Assembly (NCBI GenBank): GCA_965243215.1
Contig: CBDEUJ010000005.1
Coordinates: forward strand, 936,546 to 1,000,545
Origin: Paracoccaceae bacterium
GTDB lineage: Bacteria; Pseudomonadota; Alphaproteobacteria; Rhodobacterales; Rhodobacteraceae
Reading direction: 5' to 3'
DNA: 64,000 bases
Shown here: piece after piece, positions 2,487 through 29,960 of the stretch
Layout: each line of letters begins with the position of its first letter
Position numbering within the stretch: the first letter of the stretch is position 1
Made by a program: the position numbers and the translations under genes
Notes under the pieces: model-generated
Databases searched by the model: none
What the model was told of the DNA's origin: nothing
What the model saw: the letters and a program-made list of their open reading frames with translations, nothing else

Positions 2487-4067
2487 TCAGGCTTCCATGA
2501 TCCCGGACAGGTCCTCGCCGAGGTCCTGCAGCACAACCATTGCTGCATTCCGCCCTGGATAGCCGGTGATCGAGCCTCCCGGATGGGTCGTTCCACCGGT
2601 CTGGTACAGCCCTGGTATCGGCATTCGGTGCTGTGCCCATCCCGGGGCGGGGCGCTGCTCTCCGGCAAAGCTGACAGACCGGTCACCGCCATGGGGCGCT
2701 CCCTTAATCATGTGCGGATTCGACGCCTCGATGTCCACGGGCGACTTGGTCACTCGGGCAAGAATCGCGTCGTCGGTGAACCCTGGGCAAAACCGCCGTA
2801 CCGTTTCGATCAGGCGTCCGGCGAAAGCCTCCTTGCATGCCTCCCAGCCGGACGGTCCAATGTCCGGAAGGTCATGGACCACGTGCGTGAGCAGCTTGAC
2901 GGTATGATGCCCGTCCGGCGCACGGCCTGGATCCACGAGCGTCGGCGTCGCCACCAGCAGCCAAGCAACCTTGTCAGATAACCTGCCGTCATAGATGTCG
3001 CGGCCGGACTGCACGAGATCCTCGATCCAGCCGGCATAGCCGGCCGAAACGGCGCTGCGCGGCCCGCGCCGGGTTTCAAAGACCGGTGGCGCAGAAGTGG
3101 CAAGATAGGTAGCGAAGAACGGCACGCCGACATTGTAGGTTTCGACGCCAAAGAGGAAGTCCTCGCCCCAAGCGTCCTCGTGCGCCATTTCGACGAGATG
3201 CTTGACATGGATCGTGGATACCACCCCCCTGCGTCCCCGAAACTCCCGCCCGTCTCGCGTCCGAACCCCGACGCATCGGTTTCCTTCCAAGATCAAGCTC
3301 TCGACCCGAGCTTCGTAGTGAAACTCGGCCCCCCGGTTGGCGAGGAACCCGACCAGCGCATCGGTCAGACGGCCTGATCCCCCTTTTGGAATCGACCAGC
3401 TCCTTGCCTGTCGGGGCGCCGTGATCTGATACGGCAGGAACCCGGTGCCCGCCTGGTCGATCGGCACCGCCGTCTGAAACGCCATCCAGCCCATGAAGGC
3501 CCGCACGTGCGGACTTGTGAATTCGTGCAGAATCACGTCTCGCGCGCTCATGGCCATGCGCCGCGCCCAGATGCCGCCGCGTGGATGGTCTCGCAGGAGA
3601 TCCCTCATCGATGGAGCCATGCCGACGGGCCCGGACCGTGCGTCGCCGAGGAGCGGACGAAGCTCGTCGAACTCGCTGATCAACCGCGCGTAGCTTTCCG
3701 CGTCTTGCTGCGAATACCTTGCGAACTCTGCAACGGTCGCATCCAGATCGAGCGACATCGTGATCTGCTCGCCATCGGGCAACGCGACATGGGCCACGGG
3801 ATCAGGGTGCAGATAGGAAAGCCCGTACTCTTCGACCAGCCCGAGCTCATCGAGACGGATGAGCGGGTTCTGCAAGATCAACGTATGTCCGGTCGAACAG
3901 GTGTCGATCCCGTAACCCGGTCCCAGGATCTCTTCGGTGGCGCAGCCCCCTCCTGGAACCGGACGCGCATCCAGTATCGTGCATGAATAGCCTGCCTTTG
4001 CCAGATAGCACGCGGTCACCAAGCTGTTGTGGCCTGCACCCGCAATCACGAAGTCCACTGCAGCCAT
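2487..4067 (-). CDS. NAD(P)/FAD-dependent oxidoreductase, phytoene desaturase (CrtI)-like family
   Basis: Track ORF 2487..4520 trimmed to MAAVDFVIAGAGHNSLVTACYLAKAGYSCTILDARPVPGGG (GxGxxG dinucleotide fold right at the N-terminus; cat at 4065-4067). The C-terminal GLYQTGGTTHPGG motif is typical of the CrtI family. Confidence 0.8.
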   Translation of the reverse strand: MAAVDFVIAGAGHNSLVTACYLAKAGYSCTILDARPVPGGGCATEEILGPGYGIDTCSTGHTLILQNPLIRLDELGLVEEYGLSYLHPDPVAHVALPDGEQITMSLDLDATVAEFARYSQQDAESYARLISEFDELRPLLGDARSGPVGMAPSMRDLLRDHPRGGIWARRMAMSARDVILHEFTSPHVRAFMGWMAFQTAVPIDQAGTGFLPYQITAPRQARSWSIPKGGSGRLTDALVGFLANRGAEFHYEARVESLILEGNRCVGVRTRDGREFRGRRGVVSTIHVKHLVEMAHEDAWGEDFLFGVETYNVGVPFFATYLATSAPPVFETRRGPRSAVSAGYAGWIEDLVQSGRDIYDGRLSDKVAWLLVATPTLVDPGRAPDGHHTVKLLTHVVHDLPDIGPSGWEACKEAFAGRLIETVRRFCPGFTDDAILARVTKSPVDIEASNPHMIKGAPHGGDRSVSFAGEQRPAPGWAQHRMPIPGLYQTGGTTHPGGSITGYPGRNAAMVVLQDLGEDLSGIMEA

Positions 4068-23031: not shown

Positions 23032-23373
23032 TCACGAAGAGAGTCGTGGCGCACCTTGTGCCGGCAGGGTCATGCCGAGCTGGTGCAGCAGAAGCTCGTG
23101 CTCCTTCCTTGGCTGGGTGTAGCGCGGCAGGACGAGATGCCGGCCGTCGGTTGTGGGCAGATGCACGTCCACCATCTGGATCGTGCCGAATGCCTCGATG
23201 ATGGCGCGCGGGGTCAGCCCGCCGGCACGCGGGCGGGCGATGTTCTTCAGCGTCACCAGCAGGCAGTACGCGATGAACGAGACGAAGATGTGCGCTTCGA
23301 TCCGTTCCTCGACCTGGTGGAAGACGGGACGGACCGCGAGGTCGTGCTTCAATTCCTTGAACGCCTGCTCGAT
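23032..23373 (-). pseudogene. C-terminal fragment (~113 aa) of the IS4/IS1634-like DDE transposase
   Basis: IEQAFKELKHDLAVRPVFHQVEERIEAHIFVSFIAYCLLVTLK...LTPRAIIEAFGTIQMVDVHLPTTDG is the conserved C-terminal block of this transposase type. It is in frame with the N-terminal fragment once 23374..28402 is removed. Confidence 0.8.
23368..23373. repeat. CTCGAT, left junction copy flanking the serine-recombinase element
   Basis: Direct reading; an identical hexamer lies at 28397-28402. Confidence 0.6.
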
Positions 23374-23400
23374 ATAGCAAACAAAATGCCTACAAAACGT

Positions 23401-23428
23401 TTACAGGGACGTTGCAGCCCCATATACT
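23401..23428 (+). promoter_or_regulatory. sigma70-like promoter TTACAG-N16-TATACT in the left arm of the recombinase element
   Basis: Direct reading. It is oriented toward the recombinase gene but is now separated from it by the IS1595 element. Confidence 0.35.
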
Positions 23429-23439
23429 GGCCCACGAAA

Positions 23440-23447
23440 CCTTGGTT
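23440..23447. repeat. CCTTGGTT(G), left copy of the IS1595 target-site duplication
   Basis: The identical 8-9 nt string is at 26116-26123(4), immediately outside both IRs. Confidence 0.8.
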
Positions 23448-23473
23448 GGGGAATTATATACTTGCCTAACCAT
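23448..23473. repeat. IS1595 left inverted repeat
   Basis: GGGGAATTATATACTTGCCTAACCAT. Its complement matches ATGGTTAGGCAAGTATATAAGCCC(C) at 26092-26115, with a 20-nt perfect core and one indel. Confidence 0.85.
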
Positions 23474-23512
23474 GCGTAGTTGGCTAGAGTGATTCGTGAA
23501 GGGAGAATCGCA

Positions 23513-24478
23513 ATGCAGAAAGCGCCGGGAAAATCGCATCGCGAAGGCATCAGCCTCATCGAGCTTTTCGATATGTTCCCAGACGAGGAAACCGCCGCAA
23601 GGTGGTTCGAGGACGTGCGTTGGCCGGATGAGAAGAAACGCACCTGCCCGCATTGCGGCAGCTTCAACACCATGCGCAAGGAGAACCGCAAGCCCATGCC
23701 GTTCCGTTGCCGAGACTGCCGGGCGTTCTTCTCGGTCCGCCAAGGTTCCGTCATGGAACATTCGCGCATTCCCCTGCGCAAGTGGGCAATCGCGATCTAC
23801 TTGAACGCAACGAGCCTGAAAGGCGTCAGCAGCATGAAATTGCACCGCGACTTGAAGATCACGCAAAAGTCGGCTTGGTTCATGGCGCATCGCCTGCGAG
23901 AAGCCTTCGGCAGCGAAGAAGGATTGTTCGTCGGCCCAGTGGAAGCGGACGAAACCTACATCGGCGGGAAGCGAAAAAACATGAGTCTGTCAAAGCGGAA
24001 GGAAATGAAGGATTCAGGACGCGGGCCTGTCGGGAAAGAAGCCGTGGTAGGCGTCAAGGATCGCGACACCGGCAAGGTCCGGGCCAAGGTTGTCCCCGCA
24101 ACAGACGCGCCGCATGTTGCGGGCTTTGTGGCTTCGCAGACGAAGGACGGCGCGAAGGTCTACACTGACGAGGCGAAAGCCTACAACGCGCTCAAGCCGT
24201 TTTACGACCACGAAAGCGTCAATCACTCGGTTTCCGAATACGTGCGGGAACAAGCGCACACAAACGGAATCGAGTCGTTTTGGGCCATGCTCAAGCGCGG
24301 GTATCAGGGCACTTTTCATCACATGAGCCCGCAGCACCTGCACCGCTACGTCAACGAGTTTGCCGGACGGCACAACATCCGAAACGCTGACACCATCAAA
24401 CAGATGCAGGACATCGTTGCCGGAATGATCGGCAAGCGGCTGATGTATAGCGACCTTGTTGCAGGGTCGGAAAAATGA
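23513..24478 (+). CDS. IS1595-family transposase
   Basis: Trimmed to the ATG at 23513, preceded by gaagggag. CPHCGS...FRCRDCRAFF is the Zn ribbon, and the DDE region includes VEADETYIGG, VYTDEAKAY and HTNGIESFWAMLKRG, typical of the IS1595/ISXO2 domain. Confidence 0.85.
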   Translation: MQKAPGKSHREGISLIELFDMFPDEETAARWFEDVRWPDEKKRTCPHCGSFNTMRKENRKPMPFRCRDCRAFFSVRQGSVMEHSRIPLRKWAIAIYLNATSLKGVSSMKLHRDLKITQKSAWFMAHRLREAFGSEEGLFVGPVEADETYIGGKRKNMSLSKRKEMKDSGRGPVGKEAVVGVKDRDTGKVRAKVVPATDAPHVAGFVASQTKDGAKVYTDEAKAYNALKPFYDHESVNHSVSEYVREQAHTNGIESFWAMLKRGYQGTFHHMSPQHLHRYVNEFAGRHNIRNADTIKQMQDIVAGMIGKRLMYSDLVAGSEK

Positions 24479-24687
24479 CTAGAAAGGCCATGATTCCCCC
24501 GGTGGTCAATGATCCGGTTGCCCTAGCCAGATCATTGTTCCCGAAAGAGGTTGACACGGATGTTAAGCTAGAAAAGGGACAGCCCGACAGCCCGACAGCC
24601 CGACAGCCCGACAGCCCGACAGCCCGACAGCCCGACAGCCCGACAGCCCGACAGCCCGACAGCCCGGGAAGAAGCGCAGAGGCGTAA
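24475..24687 (+). CDS. upstream reading frame through the octanucleotide repeat; probable N-terminal segment of the methyltransferase, currently out of frame
   Basis: Its ATG overlaps the transposase stop (ATGA). It reads MTRKAMIPPVV...KLEKG(QPDSPTAR)3QPDSP and stops at the TAA at 24685-24687, 27 nt before the methylase ATG. Confidence 0.5.
   Translation: MTRKAMIPPVVNDPVALARSLFPKEVDTDVKLEKGQPDSPTARQPDSPTARQPDSPTARQPDSPGRSAEA
24578..24665. repeat. perfect tandem repeat (GACAGCCC)x11
   Basis: Counted base by base: eleven exact 8-nt units, 88 nt. The unit length is not a multiple of 3. Confidence 0.95.
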
Positions 24688-24713
24688 TTCACGAAGGTGA
24701 CTGTCTCGAAAAG

Positions 24714-25397
24714 ATGCGGGAAATGCCGGATGGATTGATTCGTCTGGTAGTCACGTCCCCGCCTTACAACATCAAGAACAGCAGCGGCAACGGCCTCAAG
24801 AACGGCAACGGCGGCAAGTGGCCGAAAGCCGCATTGCAAGGCGGCTATTCCGACCATGACGACTGCATGCCGCATGATGAATACGTGCAATGGCAACGCG
24901 ATTGCCTGCAGGAAATGGTGCGCCTTCTCCGACCTGACGGAGCCATTTTCTACAATCACAAGTGGCGGGTTCAGCGTGGTCTCTTGCAGGACCGTTCGGA
25001 CATAGTTGACGGCTTTCCAGTCCGGCAAATTTTGATCTGGGAGCGGGCTGGAGGAATCAACTTCAATCCCGGCTATTTTCTCCCGAACTATGAGGTCATC
25101 TACCTGATTGCGAAGCCTGACTTCAAACTCGCACCCAAGGCGAATGCGCTTGGATGCGTATGGCGCATCAATCAGGAAAGCAACAATCCGCACCCCGCCC
25201 CATTCCCCGTCGAACTCGCCGCGCGATGCATTGATTCTGTCGGCGGCGGCCCTGTGTTGGACCCGTTCATGGGATCCGGCACAACGGCAATTGCGGCCGA
25301 GAATGCTGGCATTGATTGGATCGGCATAGAAAAGTCTCCCGCCTATATTGCGATGGCAAACAAGCGCATAGGCCGTGTGTTGGGTCGTGCACTGTGA
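24714..25397 (+). CDS. beta-class DNA methyltransferase (SPPY motif IV; N4-cytosine or N6-adenine), 5'-truncated as annotated from the first in-frame ATG
   Basis: LIRLVVTSPPYNI is motif IV and VLDPFMGSGTTAIAAENAG motif I, in the beta-class order. The same frame is open upstream of the ATG and encodes GKKRRGVIHEGDCLEK, the conserved GDCLE N-terminal block, but has no start codon before the stops at 24552/24564. Confidence 0.8.
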   Translation: MREMPDGLIRLVVTSPPYNIKNSSGNGLKNGNGGKWPKAALQGGYSDHDDCMPHDEYVQWQRDCLQEMVRLLRPDGAIFYNHKWRVQRGLLQDRSDIVDGFPVRQILIWERAGGINFNPGYFLPNYEVIYLIAKPDFKLAPKANALGCVWRINQESNNPHPAPFPVELAARCIDSVGGGPVLDPFMGSGTTAIAAENAGIDWIGIEKSPAYIAMANKRIGRVLGRAL

Positions 25398-25402
25398 TTG
25401 CC

Positions 25403-26086
25403 ATGACAGACGCAGAATTGCACGAGCGTCTCCGCCGTGTCCTAAAGCGGGGATGGCTGAACATTCCAGACTTCCCCGGTTATGGCGGAACAGGTGCGCC
25501 TGGCAAGATTCTCGAAGAGCTGCTGGGGGTGGATGGCGGGAACCTGGACACTCCAGACGCCGGACGATGGGAAATCAAGTTTCATTCTCAGAACTCCTTG
25601 CTGACGCTGTTCCATCTGGAAGGCGAGCCGAAGGGCCACATGCATCACATGGTGCGAGAGTTTGGCTGGCCTGACAGCAAGGGACGGACCAGTTTTCGGC
25701 ACACCATTCATCAAGGTAATTCGAGCATAGGATTCTACGTAGCCAACGAGAGCGGCAGAATCACCGTCCGGCATCCCGACGTTGCCGACATGGTGTGGCC
25801 ATACTGGACGCATGACAAACTGATCAACGCCTTTGCTTCCAAGTTTCGTCGGCTGATTGTCGTGAAAGGCCGCAGGAAAGGCGACCATGTACGTTATGAT
25901 CTTGCGCACCTGTATTGGGAACCAAAGATCACGATGTTCATTGAAGCTGTCCAGCGCGGGATCATTGCCATTGACTTCGATGCCCGAACGAACAATGGGC
26001 GCGGTCTGCGAAATCACGGAACCAAGTTTCGCGTCAAGTATGACGACCTGCGCCATCTCTACGGAAATCGGAAGCGATTTGACTAG
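25403..26086 (+). CDS. Type II restriction endonuclease, MvaI/BcnI-like (MutH-related PD-ExK)
   Basis: Trimmed to the ATG at 25403 (MTDAELHERL). KRGWLNIP...GAPGKILEELLGV...TPDAGRWEIKF...SLLTLFH and the C-terminal GIIAIDFDAR...GLRNHGTKFRV..DDLRHLY align by eye with the BcnI sequence as recalled (GYLSVP..GQILERQFGV..LGDLGEFELKG..NLTLFH..GVLVMDL..GPHDRGPHLRI..LDKLY). Confidence 0.65.
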   Translation: MTDAELHERLRRVLKRGWLNIPDFPGYGGTGAPGKILEELLGVDGGNLDTPDAGRWEIKFHSQNSLLTLFHLEGEPKGHMHHMVREFGWPDSKGRTSFRHTIHQGNSSIGFYVANESGRITVRHPDVADMVWPYWTHDKLINAFASKFRRLIVVKGRRKGDHVRYDLAHLYWEPKITMFIEAVQRGIIAIDFDARTNNGRGLRNHGTKFRVKYDDLRHLYGNRKRFD

Positions 26087-26091
26087 ACCCA

Positions 26092-26115
26092 ATGGTTAGG
26101 CAAGTATATAAGCCC
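26092..26115. repeat. IS1595 right inverted repeat
   Basis: ATGGTTAGGCAAGTATATAAGCCC; see the left IR. Confidence 0.85.
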
Positions 26116-26123
26116 CCTTGGTT
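26116..26123. repeat. CCTTGGTT(G), right copy of the IS1595 target-site duplication
   Basis: The identical string is at 23440-23447(8). Confidence 0.8.
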
Positions 26124-26257
26124 GCCCTCAATCGGTGGTTTCGGAACCATGAACGAGCAGAACCCCTTCCTGACCCAACCTGCCCCGCATCGCGATCGGG
26201 TGGTGCGGCGGCTGACCCAGATCATTCTGAGGCATCTTCAGATACAGGATCGCGGCG

Positions 26258-28366
26258 ATGACACCCGGCCTGACAGGGACCGGCCTTTGCGAAGGCCGGG
26301 TTCAAAGCAGCCACGTCCGTCGCAAGGCGATTGTCTACGTCCGACAGTCGACCCCCGGACAGGTTGAGCGCAACTGCGAGTCAACCTTGCTGCAATACGG
26401 TCTGACGGACCGCGCGCGCCAGCTCGGCTGGGCCGAGGCAAGCACCGAGGTCATCGACGACGATCTTGGCTGTTCCGCCCGCCGCTCGGGAACCCGGAAG
26501 GGGTTCATGACCCTTGCTGCCGAGGTCGGCCTGGGCCTTGTCGGGATCGTCATCAGCAGCGAGGTCAGCCGCCTGGCCCGGAACCTGTCCGAGTGGGGCC
26601 GCCTGTTGGAACTTTGCGATCTCACTGATACGCTGATCGCCGACACCGAGTCCCTTTACGACCTGCGGCGTCCGAACGACCGTTTCCTGCTGGGGATCCG
26701 TGGAACCGTGAGCGAGGCCGAGATCCATACCCTGCGCCTGCGCATGCACGCCGGCCGCGAGGCGAAGGCGGCGCGAGGCGAACTGGCGGTTGCGCTTCCG
26801 CGTGGCTACGTGCGCGACGCCTCGGGGCGCACGGTGCTTGATCCCGATGTCAGCGTGCAGGCGCGGATCCGCGGCATCTTCCGGACGTTTGCCCGCCACG
26901 GCAGCCTGAGCGCGACGCTGCGTGCGCTCGCCGCGGACGGCCAGGGGGTGCCCGTGCGGCGAGCGAATGGGCCTCGGCGGGGCGAGCTCGAGTGGTCGCC
27001 GCCGAGCTCTGCGGCGCTTCATGGCATGCTGACCAGCCCGGTCTACGCGGGCGCCTTCGTCTGGGGCCGTGCCGCCGGCGGCGCCAGTGCGGGACTGCCG
27101 GTCGAGAAGCGCTGGCGCCACCTGCTGAAGGACCAGCATCCGGCGTACATCACCTGGGAGGAATTCGAGCTCACCCAGCGTCAGCTTGCGAACAACCGCT
27201 GGCCGACCCGGGGCCTGGGAGGCGGGCTCCTGTCGGGCCTGCTGTTTTGCGGCCGCTGCGGCCAGGGCATGACGGTGAGCTACCGCGATGGCGGCGGCGA
27301 AGGGTTGCGCTACAGTTGCCGCGGCAAGAGGGACTACGGCGGCTCGACCTGCCAGTCCCTTTCCAGTCCCGGCCTGGAGCGCTTTGCCTCGGAGGCCGTT
27401 GTCAACGCGTTGTCGCCGGCATCGGTGGCGCTTTCGGTGGCGGCGCTGCAACAGGCGGAGGCGGACCGGACGGCGGAGCATGGCGAGTGGCACCTGCGGA
27501 TTGCGCGGGCCGAACGGGATGCCGCCGATGCGCATCGGGCCTACCGTGCGGTGGATCCCGCCAACCGCCTGGTCGCGCAGACGCTCGAGGACGACTGGGA
27601 AGCGGCCCTGGCGGAATGCAGGCAGCTGAAGGACGCCTACCAGCGGCATTGCGGCCGTGCTCCGGTTGCATTGTCGGCGCAGGAACGCAGGGCCATCGAG
27701 GACGCGACGTCGGGGATCGCGGCCCTTTGGAACGATGGCGTCCTGACGAAATCCGAGAGGGCGGAGCTCATGCGGCTCATGATCGAGCGCGTGACGGTCG
27801 AGGTGGTCGGCGACAGCGAGCGGGTCAAGGTTGACATGCAGTGGTACGGCGGCGCGCGCAGCCGTGCCGAAATCCGCCGTCCTGTTCGTTACGTGGAGCA
27901 GCTGAGTTACTATCACGACCTCTGTGCCCGGATCGCCGCGCTGAAGACGGACGGCAGGAGCTACGGCGAGATCGCGGACGTCCTGAACGAGACGGGCTGG
28001 GAGCCCGCGCGCAAGGACGCCTTCACCGAAGCGTCCGTCGCGAACATTGCCCGAAAGTCCGGGCTCGGCATGACGGGAAGGCGCAGGCGTCCGCCGCCGG
28101 CACGCCGGGGGCGTGACGAATGGCTGATCGACGACCTGGCCAGGAAGACGGCCGTCCCGAAGTCGACGCTCCATGTCTGGATACGCAAGGGCAAGCTCGA
28201 GGCGCGCAAGGAGGAGCAGCGCGGAGAGGGCGGCGCAAGAAGGCGCTGGCTCGTCCGTGCGGACCAGGCCACGCGCGACGCCATTCGCGCGTGGCGCGAA
28301 AGGCCGGCACGGTTCAGGTCAAGGCAGGGGATACCGGTCTTTCCATCCCGTCCGGTTCAACATTGA
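26258..28366 (+). CDS. large serine recombinase (resolvase catalytic domain + recombinase domain + Zn ribbon + C-terminal HTH-like extension)
   Basis: RKAIVYVRQSTPGQV holds the catalytic serine context and SEVSRLARN the resolvase motif. FCGRCGQGMTV...YSCRG is the Zn ribbon, followed by a coiled-coil segment and C-terminal SYGEIADVLNETGW and LARKTAVPKSTLHVWIRKGKL. Confidence 0.85.
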   Translation: MTPGLTGTGLCEGRVQSSHVRRKAIVYVRQSTPGQVERNCESTLLQYGLTDRARQLGWAEASTEVIDDDLGCSARRSGTRKGFMTLAAEVGLGLVGIVISSEVSRLARNLSEWGRLLELCDLTDTLIADTESLYDLRRPNDRFLLGIRGTVSEAEIHTLRLRMHAGREAKAARGELAVALPRGYVRDASGRTVLDPDVSVQARIRGIFRTFARHGSLSATLRALAADGQGVPVRRANGPRRGELEWSPPSSAALHGMLTSPVYAGAFVWGRAAGGASAGLPVEKRWRHLLKDQHPAYITWEEFELTQRQLANNRWPTRGLGGGLLSGLLFCGRCGQGMTVSYRDGGGEGLRYSCRGKRDYGGSTCQSLSSPGLERFASEAVVNALSPASVALSVAALQQAEADRTAEHGEWHLRIARAERDAADAHRAYRAVDPANRLVAQTLEDDWEAALAECRQLKDAYQRHCGRAPVALSAQERRAIEDATSGIAALWNDGVLTKSERAELMRLMIERVTVEVVGDSERVKVDMQWYGGARSRAEIRRPVRYVEQLSYYHDLCARIAALKTDGRSYGEIADVLNETGWEPARKDAFTEASVANIARKSGLGMTGRRRRPPPARRGRDEWLIDDLARKTAVPKSTLHVWIRKGKLEARKEEQRGEGGARRRWLVRADQATRDAIRAWRERPARFRSRQGIPVFPSRPVQH

Positions 28367-28396
28367 CACACTTTGGGGGTAGCATGTCTGGCAGTT

Positions 28397-28402
28397 CTCG
28401 AT
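28397..28402. repeat. CTCGAT, right junction copy flanking the serine-recombinase element
   Basis: Direct reading; an identical hexamer lies at 23368-23373. Confidence 0.6.
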
Positions 28403-29809
28403 TTCGACGAGCCGCATGTACAGGCGCCAGAGCTCGGCCGGGTCCTCGGCCACCATGTTGGACCGCAGCAGGTAGCGGCCCTCGCGCCGCCGGACCTCTC
28501 GCAGCCGTTCGCGGCGAAGGCGGAACGAGAACCCGTGCGCGGCGAGCTCCTCCGCGGTCGCCGGCACGCGGATGTCGACCAGGCCCCAGGCCCGGCCCGC
28601 GTCCTTCCTGGCAGCGCCGAGCTTGAGCATCAGCTGGTCGCGGCCGTTGGACTGGCCCTGCAGCTCGCCGAGCCGCCGCCAGAGCCTCTTCAGGCGGCGC
28701 CGGCGCATCGCGCGTTCCTTGTGCAGCCGCCCCTCCGAGCGCACCAGCACGTACAGCTCCCCGTCCTCGACGAGAAGCTTGACGCCCACGCTCTCGCGCA
28801 CCTCCTGCCAGGGCCGGTCAAGGAACGCCTTCTCGAACTTCGTCAGCCGGCCCTTGGGCGTGCCGACGAGATAGCGCACCGGCGCATCGCCCTCGCGCAT
28901 CTGCTGCAGGGTCTCCTCCGTCGGGATGCCGCGGTCCATGATCCAGATCCGGTCGGAGCGGCCGTACTGCCGCTCGATCCGCTCGAGGAAGCCGGCCAGC
29001 GTGCTCTGGTCGGAGGTGTTGCCCGGCATCACCTCGTAGGCCAGCGGAAAGCCGTCCGGCGTGACGACCAGCGCGATCACCACCTGCACGCAGTCCGGGC
29101 GGCTGTCGCGGCTGTAGCCGAACTGGCGCTTGTCGTCGAACGGAGGATCGCTCTCGAAACAGGTCGAGGTCAGGTCGTACACCAGGATGTCGAACCGCGC
29201 GTCGAACAGCGTCGCCCATCGCTCGCGCAGGAAGGAGAAGAACGCCTCCCTGTGCACGAGCAGCCTGTCGAGGCAGCGGTACAGCGTGTCCGCGGGGATC
29301 GCCCGGTCGCAGCCGAGCAGGTCGCGCAGGGCGCTGTGCTCGAACCAGTGGCGGTGCAGGCGCCACTCGCTGCCCGGATCGACCAGCCGGTAGCAGGCCA
29401 GGATCTTCAGCACGTCGAGCCAGCGCGTGCCCTGCCGGCTCGGAGGCAGGCGCGGCGCCCAGAACCGGTCCAGCTCCAGCCGGTCCCACAGGGTCAGGGC
29501 CAGCCAGCAGGCCCCCCACTGGCGAGGGTCGTGCAGCGACACCTCCGCGACGTTGATCTTCACCACCTCGCAGTCCAGCTCGGGCGACTCCCGGTCCTCG
29601 GGAAACAGCGCCACCTGACGCGATCCCGACCGGCCTTCCAGCACCTCGATCGCGCGGCACCATGCCGCGCGCTGGCTGTCGTTGATCTCGCCGAGATACA
29701 GGACCTGACGCTGGACGACCCGGCCGCCGCGCACGCGGCAGTTCTCCACCACGCTCCAGTAGCGGTGTTCCTTGCCGTCCTTGAATCGCTTCTTGCAGCG
29801 CACGAACAT
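28397..29809 (-). pseudogene. N-terminal fragment (471 aa) of the IS4/IS1634-like DDE transposase
   Basis: MFVRCKKRFKDGKEHRYWSVVENCRVRGGRVVQRQVLYLGEINDSQRAAW... is followed to ...AELWRLYMRLVEIE. The sequence then becomes unrelated (NCQTCYPQ...) after the CTCGAT junction. Confidence 0.8.
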
Positions 29810-29960
29810 GGGCGGAGACTCCGCCGTCGCGACCCCCAGATCAAGGGGGCAGGTCGGCACTACACGCGACTTCTGGGGGTCGGGTCCTTGAAAACAAGGC
29901 GCTTCCAGCGCCGAAACCAGGCAAATTCGTCAAAACACGCGTCGAGTTTCTGAAGTCGGG

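Follow-up and report, generated by a model that had tools for sequence, protein, structure and literature searches.

Can a Type II restriction-modification (R-M) system, whose endonuclease works independently of its methylase, afford to have the methylase gene switched by a hypermutable repeat? In the Type III and Type I systems of pathogens, it is well established that methylases phase-vary through repeats, and there the loss of the methylase disables restriction as well. Two-gene Type II systems in which the endonuclease acts independently are, in contrast, the textbook “addictive” modules and should not tolerate methylase loss. The question is raised by a locus on contig CBDEUJ010000005.1 of a Paracoccaceae bacterium (assembly GCA_965243215.1), within a stretch of 64,000 nucleotides (nt; positions 936,546 to 1,000,545, forward strand) that is referred to as the window. 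There, an IS1595-family insertion sequence (IS) carries a methylase gene, split by eleven perfect copies of an octanucleotide, together with an endonuclease gene. In our assessment, the locus is probably a slippage-driven simple-sequence switch in the 5' coding region of this IS1595-borne two-gene Type II R-M methylase; the allele present in the window is frame-OFF.

The array and the coding parts around it are the following (aa, amino acids; ORF, open reading frame; TRF, Tandem Repeats Finder; handles beginning with P denote proteins and those beginning with L denote loci):

24475 to 24577, plus strand: leader, the native methylase 5' end, encoding MTRKAMIPPVVNDPVALARSLFPKEVDTDVKLEKG; P0141 has an identical N-terminus, and P0001 and P0144 have homologous ones.
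24578 to 24665, plus strand: simple-sequence array (GACAGCCC)x11, the probable frame-setting switch; found by TRF and script, with 4-, 8- and 11-unit alleles on identical flanks.
24666 to 24713, plus strand: first 16 codons of the methylase core (GKKRRGVIHEGDCLEK), reached by no start codon at 11 units.
24685 to 24687, plus strand: out-of-frame TAA within the codons for G-V-I (GGC GTA ATT), closing the leader ORF at the present phase, 26 nt upstream of ATG 24714.
24714 to 25397, plus strand: methylase core ORF as a gene caller sees it, 227 aa with an SPPY motif (PF01555, 4e-36, full profile).
25394 to 25397, plus strand: GTGA overlap of the methylase stop and the candidate endonuclease start, read from the sequence.
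25394 to 26086, plus strand: MvaI/BcnI-family restriction endonuclease gene, starting at GTG 25394 or ATG 25403 (PF15515, 5.7e-26, profile positions 3-227 of 227).

The eleven units were found to be exact by a script check, and a single array spanning 24578-24666 was returned by TRF, with a period of 8, 11.1 copies, 100% matches and a score of 178, as against 43 for the runner-up among its 23 rows for the 64 kb; a perfect array of 88 nt cannot be a product of chance. It separates a 35-codon leader, starting at ATG 24475, from the methyltransferase core, which is out of frame at 11 units. According to the ORF listing and its translation, the leader ORF (24475-24687) specifies 70 aa, MTRK...GQPDSPTAR(x3)QPDSPGRSAEA, and ends at the TAA. 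The methylase frame opens behind the stops at 24552 and 24564 and specifies GKKRRGVIHEGDCLEK ahead of ATG 24714, its first start codon. When the locus was rebuilt with 5 to 16 units, a fused protein (296, 304, 312 or 320 aa) resulted only at n = 7, 10, 13 and 16, every other n in that range giving products of 54-85 aa; in all three frames, the array reads as the same cyclic octapeptide. The locus combines the marks of a contingency locus, i.e., a perfect repeat, a unit that is not a multiple of 3, and a position inside a methylase reading frame. Much of this had been claimed in a sequence-only reading of the window (eleven perfect units, an open methylase frame with a GDCLE block but without a start codon, a second frame coupled by ATGA to the transposase stop, fusion to about 304 aa at 10 or 13 copies with 11 copies OFF, and one octapeptide in every frame), and it holds under TRF and exact matching, translation, ORF listing and rebuilding of the alleles. 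A scan for promoters and terminators yielded weak consensus matches only and no usable signal near the array, and no Rfam family was matched at gathering thresholds between 23000 and 27000.

A switch of this kind implies that alleles of different length and phase exist in nature. Allele counts were drawn from genome contigs, look-ups of encoding contigs and cluster look-ups; the sampling is OFF-biased, as much of it began from truncated protein calls. The alignment of L092, which encodes P0121, with 23448-26116 spans 2,669 columns; it has no mismatch, and its one gap, of 24 nt, corresponds to 8 instead of 11 units. Rebuilding the flanks of the window with n = 4 reproduces P0141 residue for residue (288 aa, in frame), and n = 8 and n = 11 give P0121 and P0137, respectively. 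In a sister element with the unit GACAGACC, 14.6 units (L081) and 38.6 units (L002) are found on flanks that are 99.6-99.8% identical. Three loci from one metagenome (L088-L090, unit GACAGCCC) encode the same methylase protein behind 9, 27 and 14 units, all out of frame, and P0157 (334 aa), a member of their 90%-identity cluster, equals the 19-unit in-frame product at 333/334 residues. Since 4/8/11 and 9/14/19/27 alleles exist, all three frames occur among close relatives. The comparison of repeat number in related copies, which the sequence-only reading had proposed as a check, returned variable numbers in each set (4, 8 and 11 on identical flanks; 14 vs 38; 9, 14, 19 and 27), and in-frame as well as out-of-frame alleles are found in nature.

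For arrays of at least 3 units with known phase, the tally stands at 4 ON, namely P0141 (4 units), P0002 (about 4), P0157 (19) and L019 (57 units of 7 nt), and 16 OFF. Ten of the OFF phases stop at a TAA or TAG inside G-x-I-H, five stop in or after GDC, and one is unclear. The ON allele P0141 would appear to keep its endonuclease, judging from the exact endonuclease sequence on three contigs.

The next question is whether the native enzyme starts in the leader or at the internal Met encoded by ATG 24714. The array-free or short-array homologues P0001, P0002 and P0144 have one uninterrupted ORF from leader to core; in P0001 and P0144, a leader homologous to that of the window is joined to the core without any array. 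The leader ATG overlaps the transposase stop TGA 24476-24478 (ATGA), and GGAG-type Shine-Dalgarno motifs precede the leader ATG in relatives, while the internal ATG mostly has none. Across the 11 codons that separate the array from the internal ATG, codon-position variability among 12 distinct array-bearing sequences is 0.29/0.13/0.55, which matches the 0.23/0.16/0.52 of the 13 codons downstream of the internal ATG; the hidden block is, therefore, under protein-coding selection in the core frame, even where no start reaches it. In the AlphaFold2 model of P0001 (predicted template-modelling score 0.78), the leader is of low confidence with one short helix, and beta-strand 43-46 and helix 49-54 follow at a predicted local distance difference test score (pLDDT) of 97-98. 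The invariant Met is residue 53, within that helix; a 227-aa product would, therefore, be missing strand 43-46 of the core as well as half of helix 49-54. In the model, the array site falls in the floppy, low-confidence linker, where an insert of variable length should be tolerated.

Homologues agree with a start in the leader. The GxIHxGDCLE block together with an N-terminal extension is found in 82/120 best homologues, which runs counter to the refuting scenario of the sequence-only reading, i.e., homologues that natively start at M24714 and lack GDCLE, as does the place of that Met inside the core helix. About a quarter of the closest database homologues (33/120) are nevertheless annotated as proteins of about 227 aa (224-231 aa) that begin at the invariant Met or 3 residues past it, which is a warning for annotation. 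An out-of-frame array was present in 9/12 Met-called homologues whose DNA was read, and these Met-started calls are mostly gene-caller truncations. The Met is invariant in an alignment of the window protein and 29 close homologues; as it is nearly invariant in array-free homologues too, its conservation is taken to be structural. The core itself matches PF01555 over positions 1-221 of 221 with an invariant SPPY, as in beta-class N4/N6 methyltransferases. The closest solved structures are the N4-cytosine methyltransferase 8s9m/8s9n, followed by CcrM, M.BceJIV, M.PvuII and M.RsrI, and the top Foldseek matches are beta-class enzymes at probability 1.00.

What would make a methylase-OFF state survivable is the arrangement of the second gene. 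The endonuclease is matched by R.MvaI (2oa9, E 2e-11) and R.BcnI (2odh, 1.3e-6), and its “TPD...EIK” aligns to the “APD...EIK” of MvaI, as in a separate endonuclease of the PD-(D/E)XK type. A match to the endonuclease gene lies downstream in all 16 array-bearing loci besides the window, and the stop/start overlap, as [A/G]TGA or TGATG, recurs in 12/12 array-bearing loci examined. From these overlaps, translational coupling of methylase and endonuclease can be suggested; if it holds, a frameshifted methylase would also lower restriction and the OFF state would, therefore, be viable for a Type II system. Nonsynonymous (pN) and synonymous (pS) divergence, with medians of 0.14 vs 0.79 for the methylase core (11 array lineages) and values of 0.18 vs 0.84 for the endonuclease (array lineages; synonymous sites saturated), indicates that both genes are under purifying selection. 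The coupled, intact endonuclease points to a role in defence rather than in pure regulation (phasevarion). The assignment to Type II with an SPPY methylase made in the sequence-only reading agrees with the PF01555, PF15515 and MvaI/BcnI matches, which a CCNGG-like target would likewise fit; family (PF01555, SPPY) and nearest structures are compatible with an N4-cytosine methylase of CCWGG or CCSGG. Observed/expected ratios in the window (CCWGG 0.77, CCSGG 0.98, controls 0.82 to 0.96) give no informative avoidance.

The cassette is a discrete mobile element of 2,668 bp (23449-26116) that comprises transposase, leader, array, methylase and endonuclease, with the following further parts:

23441 to 23448, unstranded: left copy of the 8-bp target-site duplication, CTTGGTTG, read from the sequence.
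23449 to 23473, plus strand: left terminal inverted repeat (25 nt), GGGAATTATATACTTGCCTAACCAT, from a repeat search; homology to L092 begins at 23448.
23513 to 24478, plus strand: IS1595-family transposase gene from ATG 23513, in an ORF open from TTG 23480; the ATG was chosen from the 321-aa call in L092.
26092 to 26116, minus strand: right terminal inverted repeat, from a repeat search; homology to L092 stops at 26116.
26117 to 26124, unstranded: right copy of the 8-bp target-site duplication, CTTGGTTG, read from the sequence.

The transposase matches PF12762 (4.6e-41), the zinc ribbon PF12760 (1.3e-7) and NCBIfam NF033547 (186.5 bits vs a cut-off of 75). The inverted-repeat pair (23448-23473 / 26092-26117; 26 nt, 92% complementary) brackets exactly the five cassette parts, and similar ends surround the cassette in L002, L081 and L084. 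Within the element, G+C is 53-60%, as against 63-73% in the immediate flanks. The copy in L092 has unrelated flanking genes and its own 8-bp duplication, AAAATAAG, on both sides; because this mismatch-free copy occupies another site with a duplication of its own, the element has transposed recently. The methyltransferase had been described as transposon-borne from the outset, and the inverted ends, the target duplication and the identical copy at a second site bear this out. An IS1595-type transposase lies directly upstream in 13/92 loci from genomes and metagenome assemblies; a megablast search of PLSDB with 23400-26100 gave no match.

Is the array a peculiarity of this element, or is it maintained more widely? 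Methylase relatives are encoded at 80 genome loci (L001-L080), and perfect arrays are carried by the closest of them. Perfect 7- or 8-nt arrays of 3-57 copies occupy the same codon position in at least 10 lineages of Alphaproteobacteria, Gammaproteobacteria and Chloroflexota, mostly metagenome-assembled genomes (MAGs) of sponge symbionts; going by record titles, many of the hosts belong to taxa that are known from sponges. The arrays sit directly upstream of the ...RKPRG-x-IH-x-GDCLE block, and their units are related but distinct:

L001, Thermohalobaculum: GACAGTCC, 14 copies.
L002, Rhizobiaceae: GACAGACC, 38 copies.
L005, Arenicellales: GCAAGTCC, 12 copies.
L007, Alphaproteobacteria: GCAAGCCC, 26 copies.
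L008, Alphaproteobacteria: GACAACCC, 20 copies.
L015, Pseudohongiella: array ended by the contig edge.
L019, Dehalococcoidia: 7-nt unit GCAGCCC, 57 copies.
L029, Tepidiformaceae: GCCAGCCC, 16 copies.

Further arrays are present in L083, L084 and L087, and a GCCAGTCC x3 array also occurs among the relatives. In a neighbour-joining tree, the array loci fall in one large clade with array-free relatives interspersed, a pattern that could stem from repeated collapse or from repeated expansion; a shared origin with concerted evolution is favoured, as the units are related and the position is identical.

The methylase relatives as a whole (67-87% aa identity, L001-L080), mostly accompanied by the endonuclease, come from Alpha- and Gammaproteobacteria, Chloroflexota, Acidobacteriota, Bacteroidota, Patescibacteria and the archaea Nitrosopumilaceae/Cenarchaeum. 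This wide taxonomic spread, with many sponge-associated MAGs, implies extensive cross-domain transfer.

A further natural form is offered by L082 (ENA ERZ25067590 ctg25856_80x_c), a circular phage-like contig of 46.6 kb at 80x coverage from the same sample as L081, with genes for a helicase, DnaN, a holin, a GH108 lysozyme and XhlA. At about 2828-3987, it holds the last 55 transposase codons, the leader and the methylase, which are 99.5% identical in nt to the cellular cassette of L081; of the array, a collapsed stretch of 1.6 units is left, in frame (P0001), and the endonuclease has been deleted. This methylase looks like an anti-restriction orphan taken from the host's own system, a natural “locked-on” form. 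The retention of an in-frame full-length methylase by the phage argues that the full-length form is the active enzyme. None of 75 related methylase loci on viral contigs has an array; all are at most 71% identical, which makes this a weak comparison.

Taken together, the mechanism that we propose would operate as follows. The native methylase would consist of the leader (from ATG 24475), a short disordered linker and the catalytic core, and each unit gained or lost in the linker array shifts the core into another frame. At n = 1 mod 3 (4, 7, 10, 13...), the full-length enzyme would be made with a (QPDSPTAR)n insert in its linker; at 11 units, ribosomes that started in the leader would halt at TAA 24685, leaving the core, including its first beta-strand, untranslated from any proper start. 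Through the stop/start overlap, restriction would presumably fall along with methylation, making the switch-off survivable. Switching may be frequent and reversible within a lineage, and its benefit might lie in bet-hedging between phage defence and the costs of that defence.

A more far-reaching version of this idea is offered tentatively, and we would not bet on it at even odds: the IS may have evolved a “safety catch” for a potentially lethal Type II cargo, with the octanucleotide array in the linker and codon overlaps to both transposase and endonuclease. The element would travel and insert silently, flip on in a minority of cells as bet-hedging against phage and flip off again; selection would have preserved the array and the ambush stops behind it during the spread of the cassette between bacterial phyla in sponge microbiomes, and phages would respond by taking up the methylase with its array collapsed to the locked-on form.

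Several observations weigh against the proposed switch. OFF alleles outnumber ON alleles by 16 to 4, although the departure from the 1/3 ON to be expected is not significant (binomial P about 0.15); given the OFF-biased sampling, the tally and the 10 to 5 distribution of OFF frames are compatible with random phase. In each of the three closest allele pairs (8/11, 14/38 and 9/27), the difference is a multiple of 3 units, which counts against free single-unit slippage, since such slippage does not predict it. Between array and Met, both alternative frames are closed in 12/13 independent array lineages vs 21/62 array-free relatives, and the stop-forming codon pair NTA-R is found in 11/16 array loci vs 1/58 array-free ones, figures that ignore phylogenetic relatedness; the enriched out-of-frame stops would also fit termination-reinitiation, in which case “OFF” would not be fully off. 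The co-switching of the endonuclease is read solely from the stop/start codon overlap, and where the endonuclease of a Type II system is independent, a switch carries an inherent risk in either direction. Finally, the alleles are known from consensus assemblies, and heterogeneity within a clone, a switching rate and reversibility can be no more than presumed from them.

The out-of-frame stops are central to the rival that survives best, which we nonetheless hold to be unlikely. It makes leader and array an upstream ORF that always ends a few codons before ATG 24714, so that reinitiation would yield a low, steady level of 227-aa methylase and coupled endonuclease, with array length and frame tuning expression. 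The closed alternative frames would find an explanation here, as would the use of a rare NTA codon, followed by the A or G that makes the stop while the first base varies (GTA, ATA, TTA, CTA), the out-of-frame majority of alleles, the frame kept in the three close pairs and the invariance of the Met. That Met, however, lies within the core helix and is nearly invariant in array-free homologues as well, which marks it as structural, and the 227-aa product would be deprived of the pLDDT-97 beta-strand. Most loci have no Shine-Dalgarno motif before it, selection at the protein level acts on the block upstream of it in the core frame, P0141 and P0157 are in-frame alleles of the same elements, the phage retains the full-length form, and the relatedness of the loci is left out of the enrichment statistics.

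We see somewhat less in one-way decay, an improbable but coherent account in which a costly selfish R-M cassette is silenced as its array expands into a degenerative frameshift; OFF alleles would be short-lived dead ends derived time and again from ON ancestors with short arrays, and reversion would have no adaptive role. In its favour, 3/4 countable 8-nt ON alleles have at most 4 units or are the collapsed copy of the phage (P0141, P0002, and P0001 at 1.6), OFF alleles span 3 to 38 units, and decayed relatives do exist (L086 with a frameshifted leader and no array; P0154, a transposase-methylase fusion). Moreover, on general knowledge of post-segregational killing, the re-activation of a Type II R-M system in an unmethylated genome should be dangerous. 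Against it stand the long in-frame arrays (P0157 with 19 units of 8 nt, L019 with 57 units of 7 nt) and the intact methylase and endonuclease ORFs at every array locus; further, the perfect arrays with related units at one conserved codon position, despite saturated synonymous sites, speak for maintenance and not for repeated accident.

That the array is a mere low-complexity (QPDSPTAR)n linker of variable length, or an assembly or sequencing artefact without a frame-setting role, is hardly credible, for all that every frame gives a hydrophilic Pro/Ser/Thr-rich peptide and AlphaFold2 models the region as disordered: a selected linker would vary by multiples of 3 nt with synonymous change instead of in perfect, mostly out-of-frame 7-/8-nt units, equivalent arrays recur in many independent assemblies (so that the artefact which the sequence-only reading had named as a refutation does not apply) with flanks free of error over 2.6 kb, and the 4/8/11 series on identical flanks contradicts both versions.

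One candidate was abandoned in the course of the analysis. Before the cluster look-ups, every array looked out of frame, five species being in one frame, and the out-of-frame state itself was considered as the selected functional form; this was dropped once the 4- and 19-unit in-frame alleles emerged and remains only as a minority rival.

A slippage-driven switch, as preferred here, invites comparison with known phase-variable systems. In REBASE surveys, simple sequence repeats were found in 17.4% of Type III mod genes and in about 10% of Type I systems, tracts of at least 3 octanucleotide units being counted as potentially phase-variable (PMC5909438, PMC7383803). The likeness consists in a repeat of non-multiple-of-3 unit inside the methyltransferase ORF, the copy number of which decides on enzyme production. 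The differences concern the consequences and the setting: in Type III and Type I systems, restriction requires Mod or HsdM/S and methylase-OFF equals restriction-OFF, whereas the endonuclease here is separate and of the self-sufficient MvaI/BcnI type. Their units usually measure 1-5 nt, compared with 8 nt and up to 38 copies in the relatives of the present system, their cases come from host-adapted pathogens instead of environmental and sponge-associated bacteria, and they do not ride on an insertion sequence as this system does.

Closer in class is hpyAVIBM of Helicobacter pylori, a solitary Type II methylase with AG repeats, the endonuclease partner of which is absent (PMC3411764). Both are Type II-class methylases with an intragenic repeat that differs in number and frame (between strains in the case of hpyAVIBM); in contrast to the short dinucleotide tract of 4-5 units in hpyAVIBM, the present array is a long octanucleotide one, and an intact endonuclease gene under purifying selection overlaps the methylase gene. 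With the MvaI (CCWGG) and BcnI (CCSGG) systems, the cassette shares the full-length PF15515 match, the aligned PD...EIK and a beta-class SPPY partner; sequence identity to the solved enzymes is low. To our knowledge, intragenic repeats and an IS context are both absent from the characterised MvaI/BcnI systems.

With passenger-carrying members of the IS1595 family, the element has in common DDE_Tnp_IS1595 plus zinc ribbon, terminal inverted repeats, an 8-bp duplication, and extra genes placed after the transposase and before the right end. On record (PMC2853133) are R-M genes flanked by IS elements or transposon-like inverted repeats and IS-flanked solitary methylase genes, and the IS1595 family is placed at the IS/transposon frontier in a work cited there (PMC2853133, citing Siguier et al. 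2009). The passenger here differs in being a complete R-M operon, the first gene of which is joined by ATGA to the transposase stop and gated by a hypermutable array. Full-text literature searches returned no description of a repeat-gated MvaI/BcnI-type system, of such IS1595 cargo or of phase-variable methylases in sponge symbionts. The locus would represent a known mechanism, simple-sequence phase variation, newly placed on a complete Type II R-M system that has two genes, travels as cargo of an IS1595-family element and is conserved across phyla. As a conserved counter-example to the rule that such systems do not tolerate methylase loss, a Type II R-M system that a hypermutable repeat gates and whose ON and OFF alleles occur naturally on one element, it suggests through operon order and overlapping stop/start codons how the methylase-loss problem might be escaped. 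It would also take contingency loci beyond pathogens, to mobile elements and to environmental bacteria, both free-living and symbiotic. The long reads behind the assemblies hold the array length and, in principle, N4-methylcytosine kinetics on the same molecules.

Some minor observations concern the surroundings of the array and its relatives. The minus strand of the array (24578-24665) reads (GGGCTGTC)n, with GGG tracts 5 nt apart, which fits the textbook G-quadruplex pattern; GGG or GG recurs at equal spacing in other lineages. Upstream of position 2001, L086 (ENA ERZ25072854) has no array and a leader that is frameshifted relative to the core, and it looks as if it were decaying, unlike the array loci. 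A deletion variant without leader and array is P0154 (429 aa), from the cluster of P0033/L005: an IS1595 transposase, of which the N-terminal two thirds remain, continues in frame into the methylase just ahead of GEIHQGDCLE.

The cassette sits among other mobile DNA in the window. On its right side, 26258-28366 (plus strand) encodes a large serine recombinase of 702 aa with Resolvase, Recombinase and zinc-ribbon domains, followed by a 513-aa DDE_Tnp_1 transposase ORF at 28319-29860 (minus strand); to its left, an ORF of 106 aa at 23032-23352 (minus strand) is possibly the detached C-terminal end of that 513-aa transposase, a guess from its sequence. On other metagenome contigs, QPDSPTAR repeats derived from (GACAGCCC)n occur in small ORFs with unrelated flanks (P0122-P0124, P0127, P0129 and P0133), forming the C-terminus in P0133 (102 aa), and GACAGCCC octamer arrays may mark further loci in these communities.

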